Source: a virus
Taxonomy: Duplodnaviria > Heunggongvirae > Uroviricota > Caudoviricetes
Direction: 5' to 3' (one strand)
Length of the DNA: 38,304 bases
IMG/VR virus record: IMGVR_UViG_2667527993_000018
In this document: one piece after another, positions 1 to 22,901 of the stretch
Layout of the letters: the number at the start of each line of letters is the position of its first letter
Numbering within the stretch: position 1 is the first letter of the stretch
Made by a program: the position numbers and the translations under genes
Notes under the pieces: generated by a model
Databases searched by the model: none
Seen by the model: only the letters and a program-made list of their open reading frames with translations
Told to the model about the DNA's origin: nothing

Positions 1-696
1 TCATTCATCCTCCTGATGCGTGGTAGCGGTCCCATTGAAGGGCAAAATAAAATCACCCAAACAGAAAACAGATTCTTCAGCCACGGATATAAGCTGCCCG
101 TTCAAACGCAGTGAAACGGGCGCAGAAGTTCGAATCGCAATACGCTGCGCGTCGAGCGTGACCTGTAATTCGCAGCCCTGCCAGAACAGAGGGAAAGACA
201 ACTGTTGCCACTGCTCCGGTAACGCCGGATTGAGATGTAATTCACCGTCACGCACGCTCACCCCGGCAAAACCCTGAATCGCCCCCAGCCAGATAGCGCC
301 AGTTGCGGCAGCGTGGATACCATCATCACAACTATGCGGATCAGCACCAAGATCGATTTCAGTCCCCTCGCGCCAGAACTGATAACTTTGGGTCAGCAGG
401 CCACAGCGTGCGGCAACAATGCCGTGGATTGCTTTACTTAATGACGAGTCGTGAATAGTGCGCGGTTCATAAAATTGCAGATTGGCAAGACACGATACCG
501 CTGAGAACTGCTCCGGCAGCATGTAATTGAGCATCACCACATCAGCTTGTTTGAGGATCTTATAGCGCGGCGATTTTTTTGATACCGATTTGCATTTCAT
601 TTGATACAGCTGAAAAACGCCGATACGCAACTTATTTGATACTAAATCGGCGCTTTTCTTTTGAGTTTTAGAATGAGTTTTTAAGCGCTCATTCAC
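1..696 (-). pseudogene. C-terminal fragment of a GH65-family glycoside hydrolase/phosphorylase, probable host gene interrupted by the prophage right end
   Basis: Translation from about 560 downward carries GH65-like C-terminal motifs (KQADVVML, YEPRTIHDSSLS, DDGIHAAATGAIW); stop codon at 1-3. The apparent ATG at 696 and first ~45 codons overlap the mom stop and putative phage end, so the true N-terminus is missing or phage-derived. Confidence 0.4.
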
Positions 697-1426
697 TCTC
701 TTTCAAACCAGCTTTAACTGTTTGTGGTTTTGGGTAAGGCTGGACTTTGAATAGCTTTGTGTTGAGGCGTTTTCTGGCCCTCTTGTTCAGAAACCGGATG
801 TAACGAAACTGTCGGAACTTATGCACACTGGCTCTGTCGATATTAGCCCTCAGATGTTCACCTCGTTGTCCGCCTCGTTTAATGGCATTCCTGCAAATCT
901 CGTGATACCACTCGCCATCAAGTTCATAGAATGTTGATTCATGGCTGCCTACATAATCAAAATTGCTGGCCTGATACACGACACCAAGACAGCCACAACG
1001 CTCATCTGCAAACGACTGAACCCACTGTACCTGCGGATAAAGCTGCCTGATTAGCTTGAGCGCGTAACTGATTGCCCTTGATTCGGAGTTTCTCGGCATA
1101 CAGTCATGCATCCATAGCCGGTTAAGCTCCATATATTCTCGGTTCTGCGTACCCGTTACGACGCGTGCACCACTGTTTGGGTTAAGGGCGTAACCCCATT
1201 GCATTACGCCAACAAGTTCCCGTTCTGAAAATATGCCCAGATGAAGGTAGGAATTATTTACGAAACGGTGGCTGTAATGTTTATTGACGATAACCAGTCT
1301 GGCCAGCCAGCAACTTATTGTCTCAACCCGCAACTCACGGGAGCCATAACCAACGATATTGTCGTTATAGCGAATAAGTTCAGGCGTGCTGATGATACGG
1401 GATGTGACTTGCTTTCTGTTCCCCAC
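689..1426 (-). CDS. mom: Mom-like DNA modification protein (anti-restriction adenine modification)
   Basis: 245-aa ORF at the extreme phage right end, directly downstream of and overlapping a Com-like zinc-finger ORF by ~47 nt, as in Mu com-mom. Not identified by sequence similarity I can verify; call rests on position and operon structure. Confidence 0.55.
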
Positions 1427-1580
1427 GACAGGATTTCCTTGTGTATGTGGGGTGCTCTGTGGCGCTCGGAGATGTGATTTGATTGAGGGTTTTACAGCGC
1501 GGACATTTTACTTCCAGATAACTGAAACTGGCCCGTGCCAGTAGCTTATTGCAGTGTCGGCACCGTATGTTTCGATACAT
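1380..1580 (-). CDS. com: Com-like zinc-finger translational activator of mom
   Basis: [14 protein letters not shown]...EVKCPRCK matches the Mu Com C-x2-C...C-x2-C core (Mu: IRCKNCNKLL...IRCPRCK). AGGAGG lies 9 nt upstream of the ATG at 1580; the ORF track's longer 1625 start is probably not used. Confidence 0.65.
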
Positions 1581-1624
1581 GGCCGCATAACCTCCTGCTT
1601 TGTTGTTGATGCCTTTCTCATGCA

Positions 1625-1770
1625 ATCGATCGACAAAAACGATCGATTCGATTTGTTTAATTGATACAACAAATAGATTTAAAAGTCATCAACAATGATT
1701 CAGGGCGGTGATTATTTACTTAAAGAAACGAAGAGTTAGGTGGTGAAAACGATCATAAAATGATCATTTT
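1625..1770 (-). promoter_or_regulatory. Putative mom promoter/operator region with a cluster of four GATC (Dam) sites
   Basis: GATC at 1628-1631, 1641-1644, 1751-1754 and 1762-1765 in AT-rich DNA just upstream of com. In Mu, Pmom has clustered GATC sites whose methylation state controls OxyR repression. Confidence 0.4.
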
Positions 1771-1987
1771 ATTGACTTTTTATACAGTGAAGGTAGGATC
1801 GCGCGTAGTATGTAGTATGTTTCAAATCAACAGGATACTACATAAAAGGGAAACCCAGCATAGCTGGAACTATGCTGGGTCAATCTGTAAAAACTTGCAT
1901 CAATGCTTTACTTCGAGCTCGTGGCGTATCCTATGATATTCCCCGGTCTCCTGTAAAGCAGAGATGCATAAAAAGGAGATCTTTATC

Positions 1988-2158
1988 ATGGATAAAGAGC
2001 CTGTTTGCCCTGCCTGTAAGACTCCCTTACAGCTCATCTATCGCCGTTCTCGATCTCAAAATGGCAAGACATACAAACCAAAAAATGCTTCCTGTTTCAG
2101 GATGCTGATATGTCCTGCCTGTTCTCCCCGGAGGGAAAATACACAAAACGTGCATTAA
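1988..2158 (+). CDS. Small zinc-ribbon protein (56 aa), unknown function
   Basis: Two CPAC motifs (CPACKT...CPACSP); AGGAG 9 nt upstream of the ATG at 1988; transcribed divergently from com and convergently with the esterase operon. Confidence 0.4.
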   Translation: MDKEPVCPACKTPLQLIYRRSRSQNGKTYKPKNASCFRMLICPACSPRRENTQNVH

Positions 2159-2167
2159 CAAATTCAC

Positions 2168-2198
2168 CCGGCAGGGAAACCTGCCGGTCGGTATTGTT
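2168..2198. terminator. Probable bidirectional rho-independent terminator
   Basis: Perfect 8-bp stem CCGGCAGG / CCTGCCGG with GAAA loop (2168-2187), T-rich flanks on both strands, between two convergent genes. Confidence 0.5.
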
Positions 2199-2442
2199 AC
2201 ATCATAGTACCGTCAGTTCCGGGCTGAACCGGCTCTGGTTGCTCTACGGGTTGAGGCTCATTTTCCGTGCTGTTTTCAGCCGGAGAACGACCAACCATTC
2301 GGGCCAGCACTTCATCAACATATGCGTCGATTTGTGCCTCAAAATCCTTGCGAACCTGCGCCTTCAGCACGCGGTTCACTTCTTCAGAATAAAGTGCCTG
2401 TTTGACAAGCTCTTCAGTAACCGTGCCTTTAATCTCTGGCAT
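2197..2442 (-). CDS. Hypothetical protein (81 aa), acidic proline-rich C-terminus
   Basis: AGGAG 8 nt upstream of the ATG at 2442; last gene of the esterase operon, immediately followed by the terminator hairpin. Confidence 0.5.
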   Translation of the reverse strand: MPEIKGTVTEELVKQALYSEEVNRVLKAQVRKDFEAQIDAYVDEVLARMVGRSPAENSTENEPQPVEQPEPVQPGTDGTMM

Positions 2443-2477
2443 GAATATTCTCCTTTCCTTTTCTGGTTCACAAAAAA

Positions 2478-2657
2478 TTAAATCTGACCGGAGTCTTTCG
2501 GCTGCGGCATTACAGCACCGCTTTTTATCTTTTCCTCGGCAGCTGCATCAATTTTATTTCGAAAATAATTGCGAATAATTTTATAACCACCGCTGACAAG
2601 CAACAGACAACAAACCACCGTGCAGAAATACAGCAGGCAGACGTTTATATATGTCAT
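2478..2657 (-). CDS. Small membrane protein (59 aa, one predicted TM helix)
   Basis: Hand translation gives MTYINVCLLYFCTVVCCLLLVSGGYKIIRNYF... with a hydrophobic N-terminal segment; GTGAGG ~6 nt upstream of the ATG at 2657; below the 60-aa cut-off of the ORF track. Confidence 0.4.
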   Translation of the reverse strand: MTYINVCLLYFCTVVCCLLLVSGGYKIIRNYFRNKIDAAAEEKIKSGAVMPQPKDSGQI

Positions 2658-2714
2658 ATAAGCCTCACTCTTATTAACTGATGTTACAGCCGGATAAATT
2701 CCCGGCCGTCACGA

Positions 2715-4772
2715 TTATGCCGCAGGGGTATTAACCTCAAGGACAACGCTCTCAAAAGACACGCCATAAGTTGCCCCTTTGGTGACATCTGTCAGTGTCA
2801 GCGTATCTTTGGCAGGGGAAAGTGCATCTTTCACCATCTGGAATGCCTGGCCCGGAGTGCCATCCAGCACAGGCGTTACCTGGGCACTTCCCGCCGTAAA
2901 CTTCAGGACAAGTGTATGCCACTGGTTATTGTAGGCTCCAAATGATCCCAGTTTCGTATTCCCCCCTGTTTTATGGTGCATCAGATTTAACTGGCCGCCT
3001 GTTGTCTGGAGATAATACGCCATCAGGAACGGTGTGCCTGTACCACTCATGGTTACACCTTCCGGGACCGTATCGGTGTGGAGGTAAATACCCAGAGCAA
3101 ACTGGCCTTCTTTTACTTCACCTGACAGACGGAATTTACAGGTCAACTGACCACCATGCTTCAGAAGTTCACCGGCTGCATCAGTTCCATGGGTAAGCGC
3201 CCAGGTTTTTCCGCTTTGTTTGGATACGGTCAACGCTTTACCTTCGTCCGTCAGCTGGATTGTACCATCTGTAATTTTCCAGCCCTGAGCCGGGGCTTCT
3301 CCTGCTGATGCTTTAAGTGAAAGCAGCGTACGGAGTGACGGGGATGTCGGATGGGGGGACTCACTGCCTCCTGGCTGACTACCTGTCGGCGCTTCCGGTT
3401 TCCCACCCGGCGCGGGCTGAGGCAGGGCTTCACCATCAGGGGCCACACCGGCAATAAATGCAGAGGTCAGACCTGCATATTTAAGAATTGCTGATGCAAA
3501 ACGATCTGAGACCAGAAAACGGCGCGCCCAGGAGCTAAAATGGGTTGCCCTGGATGCTGTTGTCCAGTTGCCATCTCCCCGTGATTCCGCACCATAATAC
3601 CCGGCAGAAGCGATATCCGGGTCGTGCTCCGGCAGGTTGGTCGCGGTTTTATTACCGAACTCATCGTGCATCAGTGGAACAAAGTGAATGTTCTCGGAAG
3701 CCCGGTTTTTATATCCGCTATAAATGGTTTCATATGCCGCCGGGTTCTTCTCTTTCCAGTCATAGGTTGTGTCACCACATAACCACGGCACACTGTCTGA
3801 TGAACCACCAATACACTGACCGGAGAAAGCACCAAGATCCGCACGGAATTTTTTCACCATCGCAGTAAACTGGGCACCATGCTGGGCCGGGGTCGCTTTA
3901 AGGTCTCCTTCCCCCTGAATCCATACGACAGATAACAGCACATTCTTTGGATTCGCCTCAAGTGCCGCTTTAGTTCGACTGACAAGATCCTGATACAGTG
4001 GGGTATCCACTCCCCAGCGTAGTGACGCCTCGGCTGCACCACTTGCCGGATCGAATGAGCCAACTGCGCCGGTTGTAAAAGCAGAGCCGCCACGGGCACA
4101 GGGAACCAGTAAAATCCCGGCATCAGCAGGAATCACCGGTAATACTTTTTTCGCAATATGAAGTCCCTGCCCCACACAACCATACTGCCCTTTTTTCAGG
4201 TCTGCTTTTGGATGGTTCAGCAGACTCATATTCTGAACATCATGAAGGCAGTGATCTGCTGGAATGATTTCATTGTATTTGCAGGGAATACCTCCGGGGG
4301 TTTGTGTATTCCTGCGTGCCAGCTGCATAATACGTGGATCAGGACGATCATAAGAATCCGGAAGGGGCAACCCTTCACCATAAGATGAAGCATTGGACTG
4401 GCCGGCTATAACAATCACGTAATACCAGGAAGGGGAGCTGGAAGCCGTTTCATTTCCTGCCGGACGGGTATGTGTTTCTGCATTATCCCAGTCTGACGGT
4501 TCAGTAGTACCGGCAACATCAGCACTTAACGGAATGACAGCACCAATACCCGCTCCGGTAATTTCCACGTTCGGATCACCGGATACTGGCCTTACCCACA
4601 GGCAATCCTGTGTATTAAAACTGATGAGACAGTCAGCAAATGTCATTCCTCCTTTCGTTTCAGCAGGAGGAAAGGGAGCCTCAAGAAATGCCGCTGTACC
4701 ACCGGAAACTTTAACGGTAAAGTTTCCGGGCATTGATGATAGTTGAACCCATTTGGACGTCATAATATTCAT
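2715..4772 (-). CDS. SASA/SGNH-type carbohydrate esterase with N-terminal unknown domain and C-terminal lectin-like (ConA/LamG-like) beta domain
   Basis: 685-aa ORF with VIVIAGQSNASSYGEG (GQSN motif of the sialate O-acetylesterase-like SGNH family); ~110-aa N-terminal region with no signal-peptide-like hydrophobic stretch; beta-rich C-terminal ~230 aa; AGGAACAGG upstream of the ATG at 4772. Confidence 0.7.
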   Translation of the reverse strand: MNIMTSKWVQLSSMPGNFTVKVSGGTAAFLEAPFPPAETKGGMTFADCLISFNTQDCLWVRPVSGDPNVEITGAGIGAVIPLSADVAGTTEPSDWDNAETHTRPAGNETASSSPSWYYVIVIAGQSNASSYGEGLPLPDSYDRPDPRIMQLARRNTQTPGGIPCKYNEIIPADHCLHDVQNMSLLNHPKADLKKGQYGCVGQGLHIAKKVLPVIPADAGILLVPCARGGSAFTTGAVGSFDPASGAAEASLRWGVDTPLYQDLVSRTKAALEANPKNVLLSVVWIQGEGDLKATPAQHGAQFTAMVKKFRADLGAFSGQCIGGSSDSVPWLCGDTTYDWKEKNPAAYETIYSGYKNRASENIHFVPLMHDEFGNKTATNLPEHDPDIASAGYYGAESRGDGNWTTASRATHFSSWARRFLVSDRFASAILKYAGLTSAFIAGVAPDGEALPQPAPGGKPEAPTGSQPGGSESPHPTSPSLRTLLSLKASAGEAPAQGWKITDGTIQLTDEGKALTVSKQSGKTWALTHGTDAAGELLKHGGQLTCKFRLSGEVKEGQFALGIYLHTDTVPEGVTMSGTGTPFLMAYYLQTTGGQLNLMHHKTGGNTKLGSFGAYNNQWHTLVLKFTAGSAQVTPVLDGTPGQAFQMVKDALSPAKDTLTLTDVTKGATYGVSFESVVLEVNTPAA

Positions 4773-15572: not shown

Positions 15573-17075
15573 TCACAAAATGAAACGGATCTGTGCTGCC
15601 AGGAAGCGGAACTGGTTAACCAGATCCGGCGTGCATAACACGTCAAGACGGTTTCGATCTGACGCATTACGCTCCACAAGCAGATTCTTTTTAAAGGTGT
15701 CCAGATTTTCGACCAGCCCGAGTTCCACCCACTCTTCACCCAGCGAAATTAACTGAAGCTTCATGATCTCCGGCGTCACGATATTCTGACCGGCACGAAC
15801 GGGCGTCCCGTCATCAGCCAGTTTATGGCGCGGAAAACGTTGTGTGATAAAAGTACGCAGGGAATAACGCAGCCAGGAGAGGGTGTAGATGGTTTCCACA
15901 TCCAGATAGCTGGGATCACTTTCGCCGTACACGTTCTGGCGATACATGGTCACCTGACGTTCGATCTGAACCACATCACCGGCAGCCACACTGACCGTGG
16001 CAATCCCTCCCCACAGCAGACTGTTACGCTCTTCACGCGTCAGACGATCGGCCGGAGCCGGGGCCATGCGTGACGGAAGCGCCAGCGTCTGAAGCGGACG
16101 CGCAGGATCTGCTCCCAGAGAGGGTGCACAGGTGGCACAGACCGCCGCTGCCCAGAGGTAATCCGGTTCAGGGGCTTTGGGAATGGATGTGCAGGTCGCC
16201 AGAAAATCATTGCGTTTTGCCCCGAATGCCTGCACCTCACCAAACGTGCCGGTATGTGCCAGCCACAGCACGCCGTCAGACATTTTGGCCGGTCCCCAGC
16301 GTTTCAGAAGCTCATCACTGATGATTTTCAGGTTTGCATCATCCTTATAGGGCATGACGACATAGTTGTACTGGCGATCGCCCATACCCGCCACGCTTCG
16401 GGTGATATCCGGGTTAGCCGCTTTTTGTTTCGGATAGGCTATAGCGACCTGTATTCCTTCCGGGGTTGCTTCCCCGTCGTGATAGTTCAGGCGCACATCA
16501 TGAACGGAGCATTCACCGGTAAAGCGGGCGGTGATCCCCAGAGACCCTTTCAGACCTGCGCCATTATCACCACTTCCTGCACCAGAGGAGGCCGTGAAGG
16601 GCGCGTCAGGATCGGCATTGATCAGCGCGGCCAGCTCGTCGGTCAGTTCTTTGCCTTTCTTACCTTTTGGTGCCGGGAGTGTATAACGCCGCCCCCCCAC
16701 GCAGGCATAAACAATCCCGTCACGGGTGACCGTTCCGGTCAGATTCATGGCCGCAGCCGTTGCCTGTCCGGTGCCGTTCCCCTGAGCAATGGCATACAGT
16801 TCAGCATCAGGATTGATGGCGATAAATTCCGCCACCATCAGGGCAATCATGGAGCCGCGCCCCCAGAGTTCTGTTGCCTGAGACGCACGGGTGATCCTGA
16901 CCGGAACATCCAGAACACCGGCACCGTCCACGGCATTCTCTTTCATTCTCGCCTGACCAAACAGCAGCACACACTGACGCTGTGCCGGAGTGCCGGTGAC
17001 AGCCATGGAGTTATTAAACTCAACCTCAATCAGCGGTATACGGCGGTCATTACCGATCCCGTCAAAATTAATCAT
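15573..17075 (-). CDS. Contractile tail sheath protein, Mu L-like
   Basis: 500-aa ORF; size and position as in Mu-like tail clusters. Confidence 0.85.
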   Translation of the reverse strand: MINFDGIGNDRRIPLIEVEFNNSMAVTGTPAQRQCVLLFGQARMKENAVDGAGVLDVPVRITRASQATELWGRGSMIALMVAEFIAINPDAELYAIAQGNGTGQATAAAMNLTGTVTRDGIVYACVGGRRYTLPAPKGKKGKELTDELAALINADPDAPFTASSGAGSGDNGAGLKGSLGITARFTGECSVHDVRLNYHDGEATPEGIQVAIAYPKQKAANPDITRSVAGMGDRQYNYVVMPYKDDANLKIISDELLKRWGPAKMSDGVLWLAHTGTFGEVQAFGAKRNDFLATCTSIPKAPEPDYLWAAAVCATCAPSLGADPARPLQTLALPSRMAPAPADRLTREERNSLLWGGIATVSVAAGDVVQIERQVTMYRQNVYGESDPSYLDVETIYTLSWLRYSLRTFITQRFPRHKLADDGTPVRAGQNIVTPEIMKLQLISLGEEWVELGLVENLDTFKKNLLVERNASDRNRLDVLCTPDLVNQFRFLAAQIRFIL

Positions 17076-17317
17076 TGCGGTTTCTCCTTATCGGATGCCG
17101 GTTGGGCGACCGGTTTTTCTGTCGCAGTCGTTGCATCCGCAGATACAGCCGGAGCCTCTTCAGCGGCTTTTTCAGCCTGAATGACATCGCCGTCATCAAG
17201 ACGCCGACACCAGAACGGCGTAAAGGGCTTTTCCTCCCCCTCCTGTGCCAGCGGGCGCATTGTGTCGGGATCACGAATCAGGCGTCCCGGCGCGGGTTTG
17301 ATAAAGATGGTTTTCAT
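17072..17317 (-). CDS. Hypothetical head-tail region protein, Mu gp38-like
   Basis: 81-aa ORF with overlapping start/stop in conserved position before the sheath gene. Confidence 0.5.
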   Translation of the reverse strand: MKTIFIKPAPGRLIRDPDTMRPLAQEGEEKPFTPFWCRRLDDGDVIQAEKAAEEAPAVSADATTATEKPVAQPASDKEKPQ

Positions 17318-17878
17318 TTACAGTTCCTCCGGCGGTTCGACCGCCGTTGTCGTGTTCCCCGGCAAATCAATATGTGCCTCAAACGGCGGCGTACCGGGCG
17401 GCTCCACAAAGGTTTCGTAATGACGCAGGAAGTCGTCCAGCGAGCTGGTATCGGTCAGCGGTGCGATCATTTCCTCGCAGGAGAAATAAAGCGCATACAT
17501 CACCGCACCACTGTCCGCCTGGGTTTCGGTGTAACCGTTGACCGCCTTTTCAAAGTAAAGCGGTGAGGTTTTTTCTGTTCTGAAGCCGTTAAGCACGGCA
17601 ATCAGCCGGGCCACAATCTGATACAGTCCGGGACGGCTGGCCTCACGCCCGTTGAGCATGTCGCCGATGACGTAGAACACCCAGTGACTGACCAGGCGAC
17701 CACGGGTACGGCCTTCACCGGCACCCAGCCAGGCAACGTAGATCGCCGGGGCGTTAATCAGCATGGTGCGCAGTACGCTGTCGCTCCAGTCGCCGGGATG
17801 CGTGTCAACAGACACCAGTTCATTCCCGAAATACTCACGGATACGGGCGATGTATGCCTGTTCGGTTTCCGTAATCAT
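17318..17878 (-). CDS. Head-tail joining/tail completion protein, Mu gp37-like
   Basis: 186-aa ORF in conserved position. Confidence 0.55.
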   Translation of the reverse strand: MITETEQAYIARIREYFGNELVSVDTHPGDWSDSVLRTMLINAPAIYVAWLGAGEGRTRGRLVSHWVFYVIGDMLNGREASRPGLYQIVARLIAVLNGFRTEKTSPLYFEKAVNGYTETQADSGAVMYALYFSCEEMIAPLTDTSSLDDFLRHYETFVEPPGTPPFEAHIDLPGNTTTAVEPPEEL

Positions 17879-18294
17879 ATGAAGCCCTTCTGGTTGCGCC
17901 CGAATACCGCTGCATCAGACTGAACCTGTGGTAAATCCCCGGATTCAGGGGCCGCACCGTTCGTATCCACACCGACCGGCACATTGCCGTTCATGACATC
18001 TTTCAGCCAGGCCAGCGCTTCACGGTAACGGTCACGCGCCTGATCGGAGGCTCGCTGATCGCACAGGTAATAAAAGGCAATCGCGCAACAGTGCTGAACA
18101 AGAACGGCCGGAATAACCTCCAGCGGCAACGTGTAACGGGCGGACAGATAGCTGTCGATAAGGGCTGACGCATCTGTCAGCGCCCGGTTCAGCTTGCGCG
18201 TGTCCGGCTCATCCGAACGGGGCACAGCCAGTAACGGCCTGAGCAAATCCTCGCGGTAACGCGCCCGCATATCGGTTTCAGTGGCGTAATTCAT
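17875..18294 (-). CDS. Head-tail connector protein, Mu gp36-like
   Basis: 139-aa ORF in conserved position. Confidence 0.55.
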   Translation of the reverse strand: MNYATETDMRARYREDLLRPLLAVPRSDEPDTRKLNRALTDASALIDSYLSARYTLPLEVIPAVLVQHCCAIAFYYLCDQRASDQARDRYREALAWLKDVMNGNVPVGVDTNGAAPESGDLPQVQSDAAVFGRNQKGFI

Positions 18295-18683
18295 GCACGG
18301 GCCTGTTCCGCTTTGTTACCGGTCTTTTTCCGGGGAGCATCCTGTCCGGCTTCGGCTTCGGCTTCGGCTTCGGCTTCGGCTTCGGCTTCGGCTTCGGCTT
18401 CGGCTAAATCTGTACCGGCCACTGCATGAACCACACCCGCCACGCTCCCCGCATCATCAGCAGACGTCTGTAGTATTCGCACAGTGAGGCATGGCTCCTC
18501 CTCCAGTCGGGCAAGCTGCTCCGGGGTGACCTCAACCTGCTGACGTCCACGCGTGAACAGGAACCCCGCACGACGAAACGCCGAACGACTGCAACGCACT
18601 TCTGCCAGCACCGTGACAGAATTGTCACCACTGACCTGAAGACCTGAATCATCTGTTGCTGCCACAGTGTGATGTTCATTCAT
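18291..18683 (-). CDS. Head-associated protein with (Glu-Ala)n repeat tract, Mu gp35-position
   Basis: 130-aa ORF immediately after the major head gene; contains an in-frame run of about nine EA dipeptides. Confidence 0.5.
   Translation of the reverse strand: MNEHHTVAATDDSGLQVSGDNSVTVLAEVRCSRSAFRRAGFLFTRGRQQVEVTPEQLARLEEEPCLTVRILQTSADDAGSVAGVVHAVAGTDLAEAEAEAEAEAEAEAEAEAGQDAPRKKTGNKAEQARA
18347..18404. repeat. Perfect tandem hexanucleotide repeat (GGCTTC), ~9.7 copies
   Basis: Directly visible in sequence; encodes the EA tract on the minus strand; unit length is a multiple of 3. Confidence 0.95.
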
Positions 18684-18726
18684 ATTTGCCCTCCGCAGGG
18701 GCCGGGCCGTAAGCCCGGCTCACCGT

Positions 18727-19674
18727 TTACAGATAATCCGCGACAACCAGCTCCAGCTTACCCTTCATCTCGTTAGAGACGGTTGCGTTTCCGTCTGCGA
18801 ACAGTTCACGCTCCAGCAGCTGCACCGCCTGTTTTTCCAGCGAGGTGGGGACAACAATATGGGTGGGTTTAATGCCGAGTTTGCGGCCACCGTCAGCGGT
18901 AAATTCGCGCATGGCTGACCAGCCGTGCCACAGTGCATCCAGCGTCAGCGGTGACTGCATCATGTAGGCCATCTGCCAGAAGCCGTAGCCCACATTGCGA
19001 CGGGCGGATGCACCAAACACAAATTCGTTATCGGTGAATGCGCGACCTTCATCGACTTTGGTCTGGGCAACCAGTTCAGCCTTACGGCGATCCTGATAAA
19101 TCAGCGGTTTTACCGCGCGGGAGCAGTCAAGCAGATACCAGGCCGGACCGCTGTAATCAGCCTGTGCGCCGACAGAGCCGGTTTTTGCCACAAACATATT
19201 GCTGACCATCTGCGCATCCCCGGAGCCATCCACTTTGGGGTAAACCGGATGTTCGGTATCAAAGAAGTTCTGACCGTCATAGCAGGCCGCACTGATCCCG
19301 TCACGCAGGGCAGCAAAGACCAGCTCATCCGGTTGTACCGCCGCAGCGCGCCCCATCTCCTGGAACAACGGGGAATAAATACCGAGGTTGTCGTCTTCGA
19401 AGTCATCGCGGCTAATGGCGACAGTGCCTTCAAAAGTTTTGTTCACGATGGCATAGCCATAGGCTTTCATCTTCTCGATGACGCGGGAGCCGATCCACTC
19501 ACGGAACTGCGGGAACTGCCCCAGCCAGCCGTAGGTGTTGGATTTCGATGTGGAGGGCACGGTCATCGCAATTTTTTTATACTGCGACGGGGCCATGGAC
19601 ATCCCGGCCTGAAAATCAGAACGGTAGCCCGTCATCAGGGCTGTGATCATCGCCGGTGTAATCGGGGTAGGCAT
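18727..19674 (-). CDS. Major head (capsid) subunit, Mu T-like
   Basis: 315-aa ORF directly after the protease/scaffold gene with ATG overlapping its stop. Confidence 0.8.
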   Translation of the reverse strand: MPTPITPAMITALMTGYRSDFQAGMSMAPSQYKKIAMTVPSTSKSNTYGWLGQFPQFREWIGSRVIEKMKAYGYAIVNKTFEGTVAISRDDFEDDNLGIYSPLFQEMGRAAAVQPDELVFAALRDGISAACYDGQNFFDTEHPVYPKVDGSGDAQMVSNMFVAKTGSVGAQADYSGPAWYLLDCSRAVKPLIYQDRRKAELVAQTKVDEGRAFTDNEFVFGASARRNVGYGFWQMAYMMQSPLTLDALWHGWSAMREFTADGGRKLGIKPTHIVVPTSLEKQAVQLLERELFADGNATVSNEMKGKLELVVADYL

Positions 19675-20798
19675 TATTGCATTTCCTCTTTCATTTTCAG
19701 GAACTCGGCTTCGGTTTTACCCAGCAGTTTGGCGGCCGCGATATCTTCAGCCGACAGCGCAGCGGTGGCAGTCTTTTTATCCGGCACGGTCACGGTGTCG
19801 GTCTGAAGAGAGGTCAGGGCCGCAACCGGCTGGCGGGCGTCAAGCTGTGCAGAAAGTGCCGCAACGCCAATCTGCCCGCCCAGTTGTTCCAGATAGCCGC
19901 GTTCGCTTTTGAAGATGCGCCCTTCGGATTCAGCCTTGTCCAGCACCTGCTCCAGCGTGGTGCTGCCGTGCTGCGCCGACAGCGCAACGTATTCGGTACG
20001 CAGGGCGTTATACGTTTCAACGGGCACGTATTTCGTCAGATCAATAATGCCGCCAGCCGGTGTGCCTTTTGCGGTTTCCAGCTCTGCCGACAGACTGGCG
20101 ACCTGTGTTTTCAGGTTGTCGTGTGCATCCGCACGGGTTTTGATCCCGGTGAGGGCAGACAGCGCCGCCGTGCCCAGCTCCGGCGTAAATTCGTCACCGT
20201 CAGCCACGGTCAGACCGAGCGCCGTCAGCAACTGGCGTAATTGCTCATTCATGGAGGTATCCTTTAAAGGAGGGTTTAAGGCGTTATAAAGGTCATCCGC
20301 CGACAGCGCGGCGACAGGATTCATGCCGGTCAGACCGGGGTCACCGGTAATAGCCAGCATCCGAAGTTCGACAGGTTCGCCGGTGTTCTCGTCATAGCCA
20401 ATCACCGGTGAAAACCAGGGGAATTCGTTATTACGCAGATGTTCAAGGGCCGGAGGGTTCCACTTCGGGCGCACCTCGAAGCCACGCTCTTCACTGAAGC
20501 GAAAATTCTCCGGTGAGGCCATCACAAAACCGGCAGCCGGTGCCTGATGCCCCTTAATCAGGGTCTGGTGGTTGTAGTCAATTTTCACCGGCTGATTGAG
20601 CGCCACAACCCGGGATACCATGCGCTCAACGGTCGCACGGTTAATCAGCCAGCCCTCGGCCGGTTTTTCCGGGCGACCGTCACGGGCCTTTACCCGACCG
20701 GCTGGCATGATCTGACACCAGTCACCGTCCCCGTCTGCGGACAGGCTGATGGCATTCAGAATGGCATAAGCAAGTTTGGGCGTGTTTTTCGTCTTCAT
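19674..20798 (-). CDS. Head maturation protease / scaffold, Mu I-like (with in-frame Z-like C-terminal part)
   Basis: 374-aa ORF upstream of the major head gene; Ala/Leu-rich coiled C-terminal half consistent with scaffold. Confidence 0.8.
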   Translation of the reverse strand: MKTKNTPKLAYAILNAISLSADGDGDWCQIMPAGRVKARDGRPEKPAEGWLINRATVERMVSRVVALNQPVKIDYNHQTLIKGHQAPAAGFVMASPENFRFSEERGFEVRPKWNPPALEHLRNNEFPWFSPVIGYDENTGEPVELRMLAITGDPGLTGMNPVAALSADDLYNALNPPLKDTSMNEQLRQLLTALGLTVADGDEFTPELGTAALSALTGIKTRADAHDNLKTQVASLSAELETAKGTPAGGIIDLTKYVPVETYNALRTEYVALSAQHGSTTLEQVLDKAESEGRIFKSERGYLEQLGGQIGVAALSAQLDARQPVAALTSLQTDTVTVPDKKTATAALSAEDIAAAKLLGKTEAEFLKMKEEMQ

Positions 20799-20974
20799 TC
20801 CGGCAGCATAAGCCGGGAATTTTCAGGGCGGGTTTTGCGGGATTTCAGGAAGTGCTTCCAGGGGAAAAATACAAAGGCGCTTCACGCAGATTTTAAAGCC
20901 CGTTAAATACAGGTTAGAAAATCACGACACGCGCCTGAAGGGGGTAAGGTAATGCATTTGCATACCTTAAACAA
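20799..20974 (-). promoter_or_regulatory. G-I intergenic region: candidate late promoter and possible strong gyrase site analogue
   Basis: 176-bp non-coding gap in an otherwise tightly packed late region; contains inverted repeat AAGGTA...TACCTT (around 20945-20970) and a hairpin over the I start region. In Mu the equivalent gap holds the I promoter and the central strong gyrase site. Confidence 0.35.
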
Positions 20975-21448
20975 TTAAGGCGTTTCTGTGGCCTTTTTAA
21001 AGCGTTTTCTGATTTCGTCCATGATCTCCTGCTCTGCCACCTGATCAAAGCCCATATACGGGCGTGCGCCAATGGCCGCCGGTCCCGGTGGCATACCAGG
21101 CAGGCCACCCCACTGATGAATGGCCGCATAAGGCTCATTTGATCCAATCAGCGCCCAGGTATCGCCATAATCCGTGGTCAGGCGTCGGGCCAGATCGCCG
21201 TTCAGCGTCAGGATTTTGCCGGGCATGTATCCCTTACGGGTACGCCACTTGCGGTAAGGATCTGACCAGTCATGCCAGCGTTCGCCGTCCGGCTCTTTTT
21301 CCTGTTCAAACGCCATTTCTGACGATGACAGAAGACTCGCCGCCACACTGCGGGCCAGGTCTTTCCCTCCACCCACAAACTGAAGCCGGGCAAAGACCCG
21401 CTGGAGACGCGTAACGTCAACAACGACAGCGGCATCAATGGATGACAT
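20975..21448 (-). CDS. Virion morphogenesis protein, Mu G-like
   Basis: 157-aa ORF between the F-like and I-like genes. Confidence 0.7.
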   Translation of the reverse strand: MSSIDAAVVVDVTRLQRVFARLQFVGGGKDLARSVAASLLSSSEMAFEQEKEPDGERWHDWSDPYRKWRTRKGYMPGKILTLNGDLARRLTTDYGDTWALIGSNEPYAAIHQWGGLPGMPPGPAAIGARPYMGFDQVAEQEIMDEIRKRFKKATETP

Positions 21449-21569
21449 ATTGCCTCCGCATAAAGGATGAATATAAAATAAACAGGCGGTCAGTGTACGC
21501 TTAACTGGTAAAGTCGGTGCCTGCCTCCGGGTGGATCATGTATGCGGGTTCAACCCCCGCCACTGACCG

Positions 21570-22901
21570 TTAATCAATATCTCCTTCCAGTACCTCAAGC
21601 ATTCCACCCCGGATATCCGATTTCAGCTTATCCATATTGATAACCCGGTAAGCATTCACAATCACATCCAGTTTATCCGGCTGACGCTTCAGGCTGTACG
21701 GCGCATTAACGGCAATCTGCACACTGCTATCCTTACTTTCCACGATATACATCAGATTGTTGTGGCGTTTGTCCCACAGCACCGCTTTTGGCTTTGCCAG
21801 CATTGCCGGTAATCGACCGAAATCCTCCGGCGTCAGGGCGATACCGTCATTCTGATGTTTCATGCTGTCCGCATGGAGCACATTTTTACCGCTCATCGCC
21901 AGCAGGCGGGCCGGTGGCGTTCCCGTCCGGCTTTCCACCGCCTGCGCAATGCTTTCGGTCATAAAGCCCAGCGTGCGGATATCGTTACCGCCTCGCCGGG
22001 TTTTCATGATGTTTTTTGCCCAGATGCGGAACGCCAGCTGCCGCTCCGGGCTGTTGTTCATCTCCTGCACTACCATTTCCCGCAGCGCCGGGCTTTTCAC
22101 CTCGATCAGTTTACGGATCAACGCCTGGTCTGTGCCGAACGCCGCCGAGCCGGGGTTATATGACCAGCCCACATCCGGTGTCATGGTTCTGGTGCCATCT
22201 GAATATGTGGTCACCGGCATTTCTCTGACTTCTCCGGTCTGCTTATCCACGCCAGCCTCAACATTGCGGGTGGAAAGATGATCCTGACCGGATGAAACGG
22301 ATAACCCCATTGCATCCAGACGGGTCTGAGACAATGGCCGGACACGGCAGCGGCAGTTCCAGCCATTGGGTGGGTAGTGTGTATTCCAGAACGGATCGTC
22401 ATAGCGGAATACCTGCCCGTTAAGGGCGGAATGCGCCGGGCGGGTGCGGCTGTCCATCACCGCCACATACTGCCAGAACGGATGCGTGTCCGTGTTGTTC
22501 ATCATCTGCGTGTAACGCCCGGCATTGTAAGCCACGCGGGTGTTCACGTTGTAAATCAGCGCCAGACGGCGGGGACTGCCCAGTTGCACTTCTTCTGCGT
22601 TACCGGCGCTGTCCACCACAATCTGCTTTCCCCACCATCCCAGCTTTTGCAGGCGGGGTGTCAGTGTGCGGATAAATGCTTTCTGTGAAATCCCCTCATC
22701 AACAGCACGCTGCACTTCCGCCTGTAGTGTGGTCAGTACGTCCAGGCGTGCCACTTTTGCCGCCGTGAATGAACGGGCATGAACATCCGCGTCTGTTTCG
22801 AACCAGTTCCAGCTGATATGCGCCCCTTTGGCGCGGAAGTATGCCACCGCCTCTTTTGAGGGAAGCGTGGCGGCATAACCTAAATCAATCCCCTGTGCCA
22901 T
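21570..22901 (-). CDS. Head morphogenesis protein, Mu F (gp30)-like
   Basis: 443-aa ORF after the portal gene; contains NGWNCRCRV motif typical of the F / SPP1 gp7 family. Confidence 0.8.
   Translation of the reverse strand: MAQGIDLGYAATLPSKEAVAYFRAKGAHISWNWFETDADVHARSFTAAKVARLDVLTTLQAEVQRAVDEGISQKAFIRTLTPRLQKLGWWGKQIVVDSAGNAEEVQLGSPRRLALIYNVNTRVAYNAGRYTQMMNNTDTHPFWQYVAVMDSRTRPAHSALNGQVFRYDDPFWNTHYPPNGWNCRCRVRPLSQTRLDAMGLSVSSGQDHLSTRNVEAGVDKQTGEVREMPVTTYSDGTRTMTPDVGWSYNPGSAAFGTDQALIRKLIEVKSPALREMVVQEMNNSPERQLAFRIWAKNIMKTRRGGNDIRTLGFMTESIAQAVESRTGTPPARLLAMSGKNVLHADSMKHQNDGIALTPEDFGRLPAMLAKPKAVLWDKRHNNLMYIVESKDSSVQIAVNAPYSLKRQPDKLDVIVNAYRVINMDKLKSDIRGGMLEVLEGDID

Follow-up and report, generated by a model that had tools for sequence, protein, structure and literature searches.

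The window analysed here, by which we mean the whole stretch of 38,304 nucleotides, was assigned to a Mu-like prophage because the genes on its minus strand are Mu-like head and tail genes. One of these genes carries a perfect hexanucleotide array near its 3′ end (Table 1). The gene lies between the gene for the major head subunit gpT and that for the gp36-type adaptor, which is the slot occupied by gene 35 in phage Mu when the window is compared with the curated Mu record AF083977. Its stop codon and the start codon of the adaptor gene share an ATGA overlap. An earlier note on this DNA had placed the repeat in a head-region protein. By gene position, with a major head protein and an adaptor as neighbours, this description holds, but 'head protein' can be used as a positional label only, because a cryo-EM study of the Mu virion did not resolve the homologue gp35 and observed a capsid without cement proteins (PMC11915804). 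AF083977 labels gp35 as a 'head-to-tail connector complex protein', and the term 'connector-related' for Mu gp35 is a published conjecture.

Between the gpT stop (18727) and the start of the gp35-like gene (18683) lie 43 nt that contain a GC-rich hairpin, GCCGGGC-ttacg-GCCCGGC (18701-18719, minus strand), with no T-run after it. At the same position after gene T, the curated Mu record carries a predicted terminator. The hairpin may act by attenuating transcription or by making the 3′ end of the mRNA more stable, and in this way set the ratio of the major head protein to the downstream products.

Table 1. Repeat array, repeat-bearing gene and neighbouring Mu-like genes in the window
Feature	Coordinates	Strand	Evidence
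Perfect hexanucleotide array	18347..18405	minus (coding)	Tandem Repeats Finder, direct reading, shuffles
Repeat-bearing CDS, 130 aa, Mu gp35 / FluMu HI1506 family	18291..18683	minus	ORF, Pfam, phrog_3622, 2OUT, RefSeq name
Folded N-terminal FluMu_N-type domain, residues ~24-75	18459..18614	minus	AlphaFold2, Foldseek, alignments
Lys/Arg-rich tail GQDAPRKKTGNKAEQARA, residues 113-130	18294..18347	minus	Sequence; predicted disordered
Shine-Dalgarno-like GGAGGG, 5 nt upstream of the ATG of the repeat-bearing gene	18689..18694	minus	Direct reading
Mu I-type protease/scaffold	19674..20798	minus	Domain / phrog matches
Mu-like major head subunit gpT, upstream neighbour	18727..19674	minus	PF10124, E 7e-119; phrog_371, major head protein
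Mu gp36-type head-tail adaptor, downstream neighbour	17875..18294	minus	PF07030, E 3.5e-35; phrog_195, head-tail adaptor
gp37-type protein	17318..17878	minus	Domain / phrog matches
Tail sheath	15573..17075	minus	Domain / phrog matches

Tandem Repeats Finder reported the array with a period of 6, 9.8 copies, 100% matches, no indels and a score of 118, while the second-best tandem array of the window scored 44. In a direct scan, the longest perfect period-6 run of the window was the 59 nt starting at 18347. When the window was shuffled 300 times, the longest period-6 run averaged 13.3 nt and never exceeded 18 nt; the 59-nt array is far above this chance expectation. On the plus strand the array reads as GGCTTC repeated 9.8 times, and the perfect GGCTTC microsatellite of about 9.7 copies at 18347-18404 that the earlier note had described is right in position and copy number to within one base. 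On the coding strand, nine exact GCC-GAA codon pairs (18351..18404) encode residues A94-E111, and GCC-GGA at 18345..18350 forms a tenth, terminal unit with one mismatch. The resulting peptide alternates between alanine and glutamate, (Ala-Glu)9-Ala, and covers residues 94-112. The C-terminal part of the open reading frame therefore reads ...TDL-(AE)9-A-GQDAPRKKTGNKAEQARA, with the residue order L93-(AE)9-A112-G113 around the tract, followed by QDAPRKKTGNKAEQARA. The array lies within the coding sequence, 54 nt short of its 3′ end, and outside any promoter. That the tract is an in-frame Glu-Ala repeat, as also proposed earlier, was borne out, with the GCC-GAA codon pairs in frame in a real gene that has a ribosome-binding site, the ATGA overlap and a FluMu_N domain. 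An open reading frame on the plus strand (18293..18487), which would translate the array into (Arg-Leu)n, was discarded as purely mechanical: it runs antisense to the conserved, domain-bearing coding sequence and is unsupported.

The family of the repeat-bearing protein was sought with several searches. Pfam FluMu_N (PF17891) was matched with an E value of 1e-8 and 35.2 bits against a gathering score of 25.8, and phrog_3622, annotated as of unknown function, with an E value of 8e-81. A structure has been solved for a single relative, HI1506 of the Haemophilus FluMu prophage (PDB 2OUT), which was matched by phmmer with an E value of 1.6e-4, and RefSeq names the repeat-bearing protein 'HI1506-related protein'. 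No NCBIfam model matched it. Among phage records, tblastn found weak similarity to Mu gp35 and its relatives in D108, SfMu and Yersinia (55.6% identity over residues 23-58). Its domain, fold and synteny place the repeat-bearing protein in the Mu gp35 / FluMu HI1506 family, and residues R38, A39 and G40, which are part of the RRAG motif, are invariant in the alignments.

The architecture of the window protein differs from that of the canonical members, for which Mu gp35, an Edwardsiella protein (P0084), an Erwinia protein (P0097) and many Salmonella members were aligned. Canonical members consist of a disordered N-terminus, the FluMu_N domain with the invariant RRAG, a short linker and, at the C-terminus, a second domain that spans about 55 residues and has the consensus DLNxRIR...NPxHFTxxGxPkVxAV...AAL. 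No Pfam family was found for this C-terminal domain, and DEK_C, the candidate that was considered, gave an insignificant match (E 0.09). The window protein shares with Mu gp35 and HI1506 the N-terminal domain, the RRAG motif and the gene slot between gpT and the gp36 adaptor, whereas it carries (AE)n and a basic tail of 18 residues in place of their C-terminal domain; it thus lacks the two-domain architecture of the HI1506 family. In two alignments the C-terminal domain was absent from the window protein and from its E. coli and Shigella relatives. The (AE)n tract opens after 'TDL', at the exact column where the C-terminal domain opens in Mu gp35, P0084 and the Salmonella and Erwinia members, and after the tract the E. 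coli and Shigella relatives have a Lys/Arg-rich tail of 18-21 residues and nothing else. Among about 100 canonical two-domain members, none carried a comparable tandem repeat.

An exhaustive search of representative proteins with the N-terminal domain gave 14 matches, one of which (P0088) was a spurious repeat protein. In two distant proteins with about 30% identity to the window protein, P0086 (106 aa) and P0094 (117 aa), an Ala/Glu/Lys-rich stretch of low-complexity or coiled sequence comes after the FluMu_N domain and closes with basic residues, and the C-terminal domain is likewise absent. Their tails differ from the tract of the window protein in being imperfect, with either AKAKADAKAKAEADAKAEAEAEAKAKAKADAGKK or a heptad-like coil. 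In two further distant relatives from this search, P0092 (183 aa) and P0096 (316 aa), the FluMu_N domain is present twice in tandem, with a GxRRAGFxF motif in both copies, and an HI1506-type C-terminal domain is lacking; the FluMu_N domain is therefore found in several architectures. A pattern scan of genome contigs for the short form outside Escherichia and Shigella was swamped by the AEAEAEAE tract and confirmed no relative. Rescanning the contigs with the tract left out gave a single distant match, from Elusimicrobia, and no sign of the short form beyond Escherichia and Shigella.

Structure prediction, which the earlier note had proposed as a check for a disordered linker, was carried out with AlphaFold2 on an alignment of 25 sequences. 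It gave a low-confidence segment beside a confident small domain. Residues ~21-70 were predicted with a pLDDT of 84-92, and the domain was modelled as a beta-hairpin of strands 25-38 and 41-52, a helix at 54-61 and a further strand at 66-73. Residues 79-130, which comprise the tract and the tail, had a pLDDT of 37-41 and no regular structure, and the prediction for these residues is consistent with intrinsic disorder. Foldseek ranked 2OUT first, with a probability of 1.00. In searches of PDB and BFVD, Foldseek returned no functionally annotated analogue besides 2OUT. The small N-terminal domain also resembles YqbF of the Bacillus subtilis skin prophage (PDB 2HJQ; Foldseek probability 0.82, rmsd 1.7 Å over 43 columns), but with a non-significant E value of 1.4 and no similarity in sequence we regard this resemblance as a lead and not as membership. 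The yqbF gene, too, sits just after the major capsid gene of a PBSX-like prophage. The flexible-linker reading of the earlier note stands as far as the predicted disorder is concerned. It does not stand for the linker itself: the segment joins one folded domain to a basic tail of 18 residues and not two domains, since the subfamily lacks the C-terminal domain of the canonical members.

Two alleles of the tail (18294-18320 in the window) were observed, one ending in ...NKAEQARA (the type of the window) and one ending in ...NKAKQAKKARA, which is three residues longer and more basic. Each of them is paired with short as well as long arrays. In a few database entries (P0052, P0054, P0073), the tail is frameshifted at an A5 run or the array is read as (KP)n; these readings are probably sequencing errors.

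The copy number of the array was compared across related prophages. Using megablast, the gene was found in 228 of 5426 complete E. coli genomes (~4%), and the carriers are mostly STEC of serogroups O157, O26, O111, O103, O121 and O145. Full-gene matches spanned 363, 369, 375, 381, 387, 393, 399, 405, 411, 417, 423, 429, 435 or 459 nt, and every span differs from the 393 nt of the gene in the window by a multiple of 6. Among finished genomes we counted 17 allele sizes (1, 3-16, 18 and 20 units), most of them inferred from the match spans and not read base by base. Nine complete-genome loci were read directly and contained the following numbers of exact GCC-GAA units: 1 in Z852, 3 in O103:H2 20151001, 6 in O26 RM10386, 9 in the window, 10 in STEC299, 11 in M3, 14 in strain 139, 15 in strain 118 and 20 in F1 E4. 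At these nine loci the gene outside the array was unchanged or nearly so. Prophage contigs from IMG/VR contributed alleles of 2, 4, 5, 7, 8, 13 and 16 units, and in two of the contigs (L011 and L019) the sequence ends within the array, after at least 12 units in one and at least 14 in the other. The earlier note had asked for this comparison, and the outcome, 1 to 20 units in whole 6-nt steps, is not the identical copy number everywhere that would have spoken against its proposal. All sequenced alleles keep the open reading frame, the tail and the ATGA overlap, in agreement with the earlier suggestion that a change in copy number spares the frame.

The array also varies in length on identical flanks. 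With a 5-kb query (15800-20800), records of 100.0% identity showed length offsets of -36, -30, 0, +30, +36 and +42 nt, and records of 99.7% identity showed offsets of up to +54 and +66 nt. At least six alleles are thus found on 5-kb flanks that are 100.0% identical. The finest step was seen in a near-clonal series of cattle isolates (CP0286xx, ~5,453,900 nt) with a common insertion site between folK and a fimbrial operon. In this series, 12 records have 14 units, and strain 118 has 15. Strains 118 and 139 (14 units) show no mismatch over 48,911 flanking bases, and for this single case an error of long-read assembly is possible. The two records, NZ_CP028665.1 (strain 118) and NZ_CP028620.1 (strain 139), are both exactly 5,453,897 nt long, and the coordinates of the upstream genes are offset by 6. 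As the lengths are equal despite the extra unit, strain 118 must have a compensating 6-nt loss elsewhere, possibly at another hexanucleotide VNTR.

With head-to-tail units above chance and whole-unit differences between strains on conserved flanks, the array is a variable-number tandem repeat. We consider it highly improbable that the polymorphism was produced by errors in the sequencing or assembly of low-complexity DNA. Short-read contigs do break in long arrays, as in L011 and L019, many proteins are annotated as 'partial', and a few records with differences of ±1 nt elsewhere in the 5-kb region demonstrate that assembly errors occur. All array differences, on the other hand, are exact multiples of 6, with 17 inferred sizes in independently finished genomes. 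Moreover, strains that were sequenced repeatedly agree (97-3250 with 97_3250, and 6535WT with 6535NalR), and 12 clonal records concur on 14 units.

The array shows signs of turnover at the DNA level. It is nucleotide-perfect (GCC-GAA) even where the flanks are only 86-92% identical, and these perfect units within diverged flanks indicate, as far as can be judged from sequence comparison, that turnover outpaces point substitution. Selection on the peptide alone would not be sufficient to account for this. Variant units that arose by single substitutions have been amplified as well: GCC-GGA gives AGAGAG in three proteins (P0001, P0005 and P0011), and ACC-GAA gives ETET in two IMG/VR contigs (L012 and L028). 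All six of the 1-unit alleles that were read have the identical tract GCC-GAA-GCC-GGA, on similar backgrounds in the IMG/VR contigs L013, L032-L034 and L036 and on a different background in Z852. The uniformity of the 1-unit tracts would be consistent with a length-dependent slippage that needs several units.

From these observations we infer slippage as the mechanism, and the reading that we consider likely is that of a replication-slippage VNTR in a length-tolerant acidic spacer that is probably near-neutral. Slipped-strand mispairing of the perfect GCC-GAA units would add or remove whole 6-nt units in prophage replication, either in the lysogen chromosome or during replicative transposition of the Mu type. 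As the unit corresponds to two codons (Ala-Glu), the frame, the basic tail and, with its overlapping start, the translationally coupled adaptor gene would stay intact. The array and the short Lys/Arg tail fill the place of the C-terminal domain of about 55 residues of canonical members. The length of the tract is probably near-neutral: it would be weakly constrained, because the tract lies in a predicted disordered tail and nothing folded depends on it. The array could then drift rapidly, with tracts of 1 to at least 20 dipeptides being tolerated. A phase-variable contingency locus was considered and rejected, given that the unit is 6 nt, i.e. two codons, that all alleles are in frame and that the array is not in a promoter.

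Whole units could also be exchanged by unequal homologous recombination or gene conversion between Mu-like copies or co-infecting phages, with slippage playing a minor part. We regard this as the main route as distinctly unlikely. The element occupies up to 4-6 places per genome, and two alleles were found together in one genome in F1273 (5 and 10 units) and in Show KS 470-1 (9 and 10 units), as would be expected for exchange between copies. Several genomes carry 2-6 prophage copies, and in these recombination and slippage would look alike. Most carriers, however, are single-copy (median of one place per genome) and yet show the full range of alleles. The one-unit step between strains 118 and 139 occurred in a clonal series with one place per record in the 5-kb search, and the length of a 6-nt unit falls well short of the homology that RecA usually requires.

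A functional effect of length stays a rival to near-neutral drift by slippage, because the net charge of the C-terminal segment swings with the number of units. It is about +6 for an allele with one unit and the long tail and -17 for one with 20 units, a difference that could matter if the basic tail is functional. The tract might then be a selected, tunable acidic spacer whose length is under diversifying or balancing selection and sets the reach or the charge of the basic tail. The protein would in that case be a neck- or DNA-associated virion component, and its variation would be contingency-like and not drift. The conserved Lys/Arg-rich tail always follows the acidic tract, and the charge of the segment shifts with the number of units as just described. 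P0086 and P0094 also have A/E/K-rich tails with basic ends in place of the C-terminal domain, and long arrays are kept in at least three sequence lineages. We nevertheless hold such a spacer, and the virion role that it implies, to be unlikely. The occurrence of 1-20 units on identical backgrounds, with no preferred length in the sample, is what drift would be expected to produce, and the exact identity of the units points to a process at the DNA level rather than to selection on the protein. In addition, the Mu homologue gp35 was not resolved in virions (PMC11915804).

A more far-reaching proposal, which we offer as a speculation with little chance of being correct, is that the E. coli subfamily has swapped the C-terminal domain for an electrostatic module, in which a slippage-driven acidic (Ala-Glu)n of changing length is combined with a fixed basic tail and copy-number changes act as a reversible, in-frame 'rheostat'. 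If this were true, the contact of a neck- or DNA-associated virion protein with packaged DNA or the connector could be tuned rapidly and heritably, and this would be a feature of a phage structural module that differs from an on/off switch as well as from neutral drift. Under the preferred reading of slippage in a length-tolerant spacer, the C-terminal half of gp35/HI1506 would be dispensable or replaceable, and it would tolerate an acidic tract that varies 1- to 20-fold in length. This tolerance constrains ideas on the role of a widely conserved, uncharacterised protein of the Mu module.

The element that carries the array is mobile. It was found at many chromosomal positions, at up to 4-6 places in one genome and once on a plasmid, and Mu-like copies are annotated inside Stx1a- and Stx2c-converting phages (LC727895.1, 26891-27265, and LC727881.1, 53841-54197). 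This distribution indicates that the Mu-like element is actively transposing in STEC. As a highly polymorphic marker on such a prophage, the array could be used to track the prophage or to split near-clonal isolates. Short-read assemblies can be expected to break at it, and this accounts for the frequent 'partial' proteins and for the contigs that stop within the array.

A further element of the window was noted at ~21487-21567 on the plus strand, between the open reading frames 20975..21448 and 21570..22901. Its equivalent in NZ_CP040307 is annotated by RefSeq as 'tRNA-OTHER', and it has a tRNA-like acceptor and T-arm (GGTCAGTG ... GCGGGTTCAACCCCCGC-CACTGACC). Across the window, neither ARAGORN nor Rfam at the gathering threshold reported a tRNA or another RNA family. 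The element may be a degenerate or unusual tRNA-like element that lies antisense to the late genes.

The closest known systems for the array itself are the MLVA typing loci of O157 and other STEC. No published description of the array, and no naming of it as an MLVA locus, was found in the full-text literature searched, in which primers and positions are absent from the papers on the Japanese 17/18-locus scheme. No 14-mer of the PulseNet primers matched the window, which is a weak negative. The array is possibly a typing locus that is already in use. In the Japanese scheme, EHC-5 and EHC-6 are often null in O157, and O157-10 was dropped for excessive variability (PMC10062581). By analogy, solely through this null or hypervariable behaviour, EHC-5, EHC-6 and O157-10 are candidate identities for the array. 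Unlike the MLVA loci, the array is carried by a mobile Mu-like prophage. This prophage is present in ~4% of the complete E. coli genomes and inserts at differing places in the chromosome, so that null alleles are expected in most strains.

In other respects the array and the MLVA loci are alike. The PulseNet loci have 6-bp units, and in-frame hexanucleotide VNTRs are familiar in O157-type genomes. The array shares with the PulseNet loci O157-3, -9, -17, -19, -25 and -37 and with the Japanese EH/EHC loci a perfect 6-bp unit that lies in frame within an open reading frame. In both, many alleles are found among closely related STEC, and single-unit steps separate clonal isolates, a behaviour that is documented for MLVA loci in STEC (PMC10062581). 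Our data therefore do not call for a new kind of mechanism: the array appears to be an ordinary slippage-prone repeat in a floppy tail, of a type that is well known in STEC.
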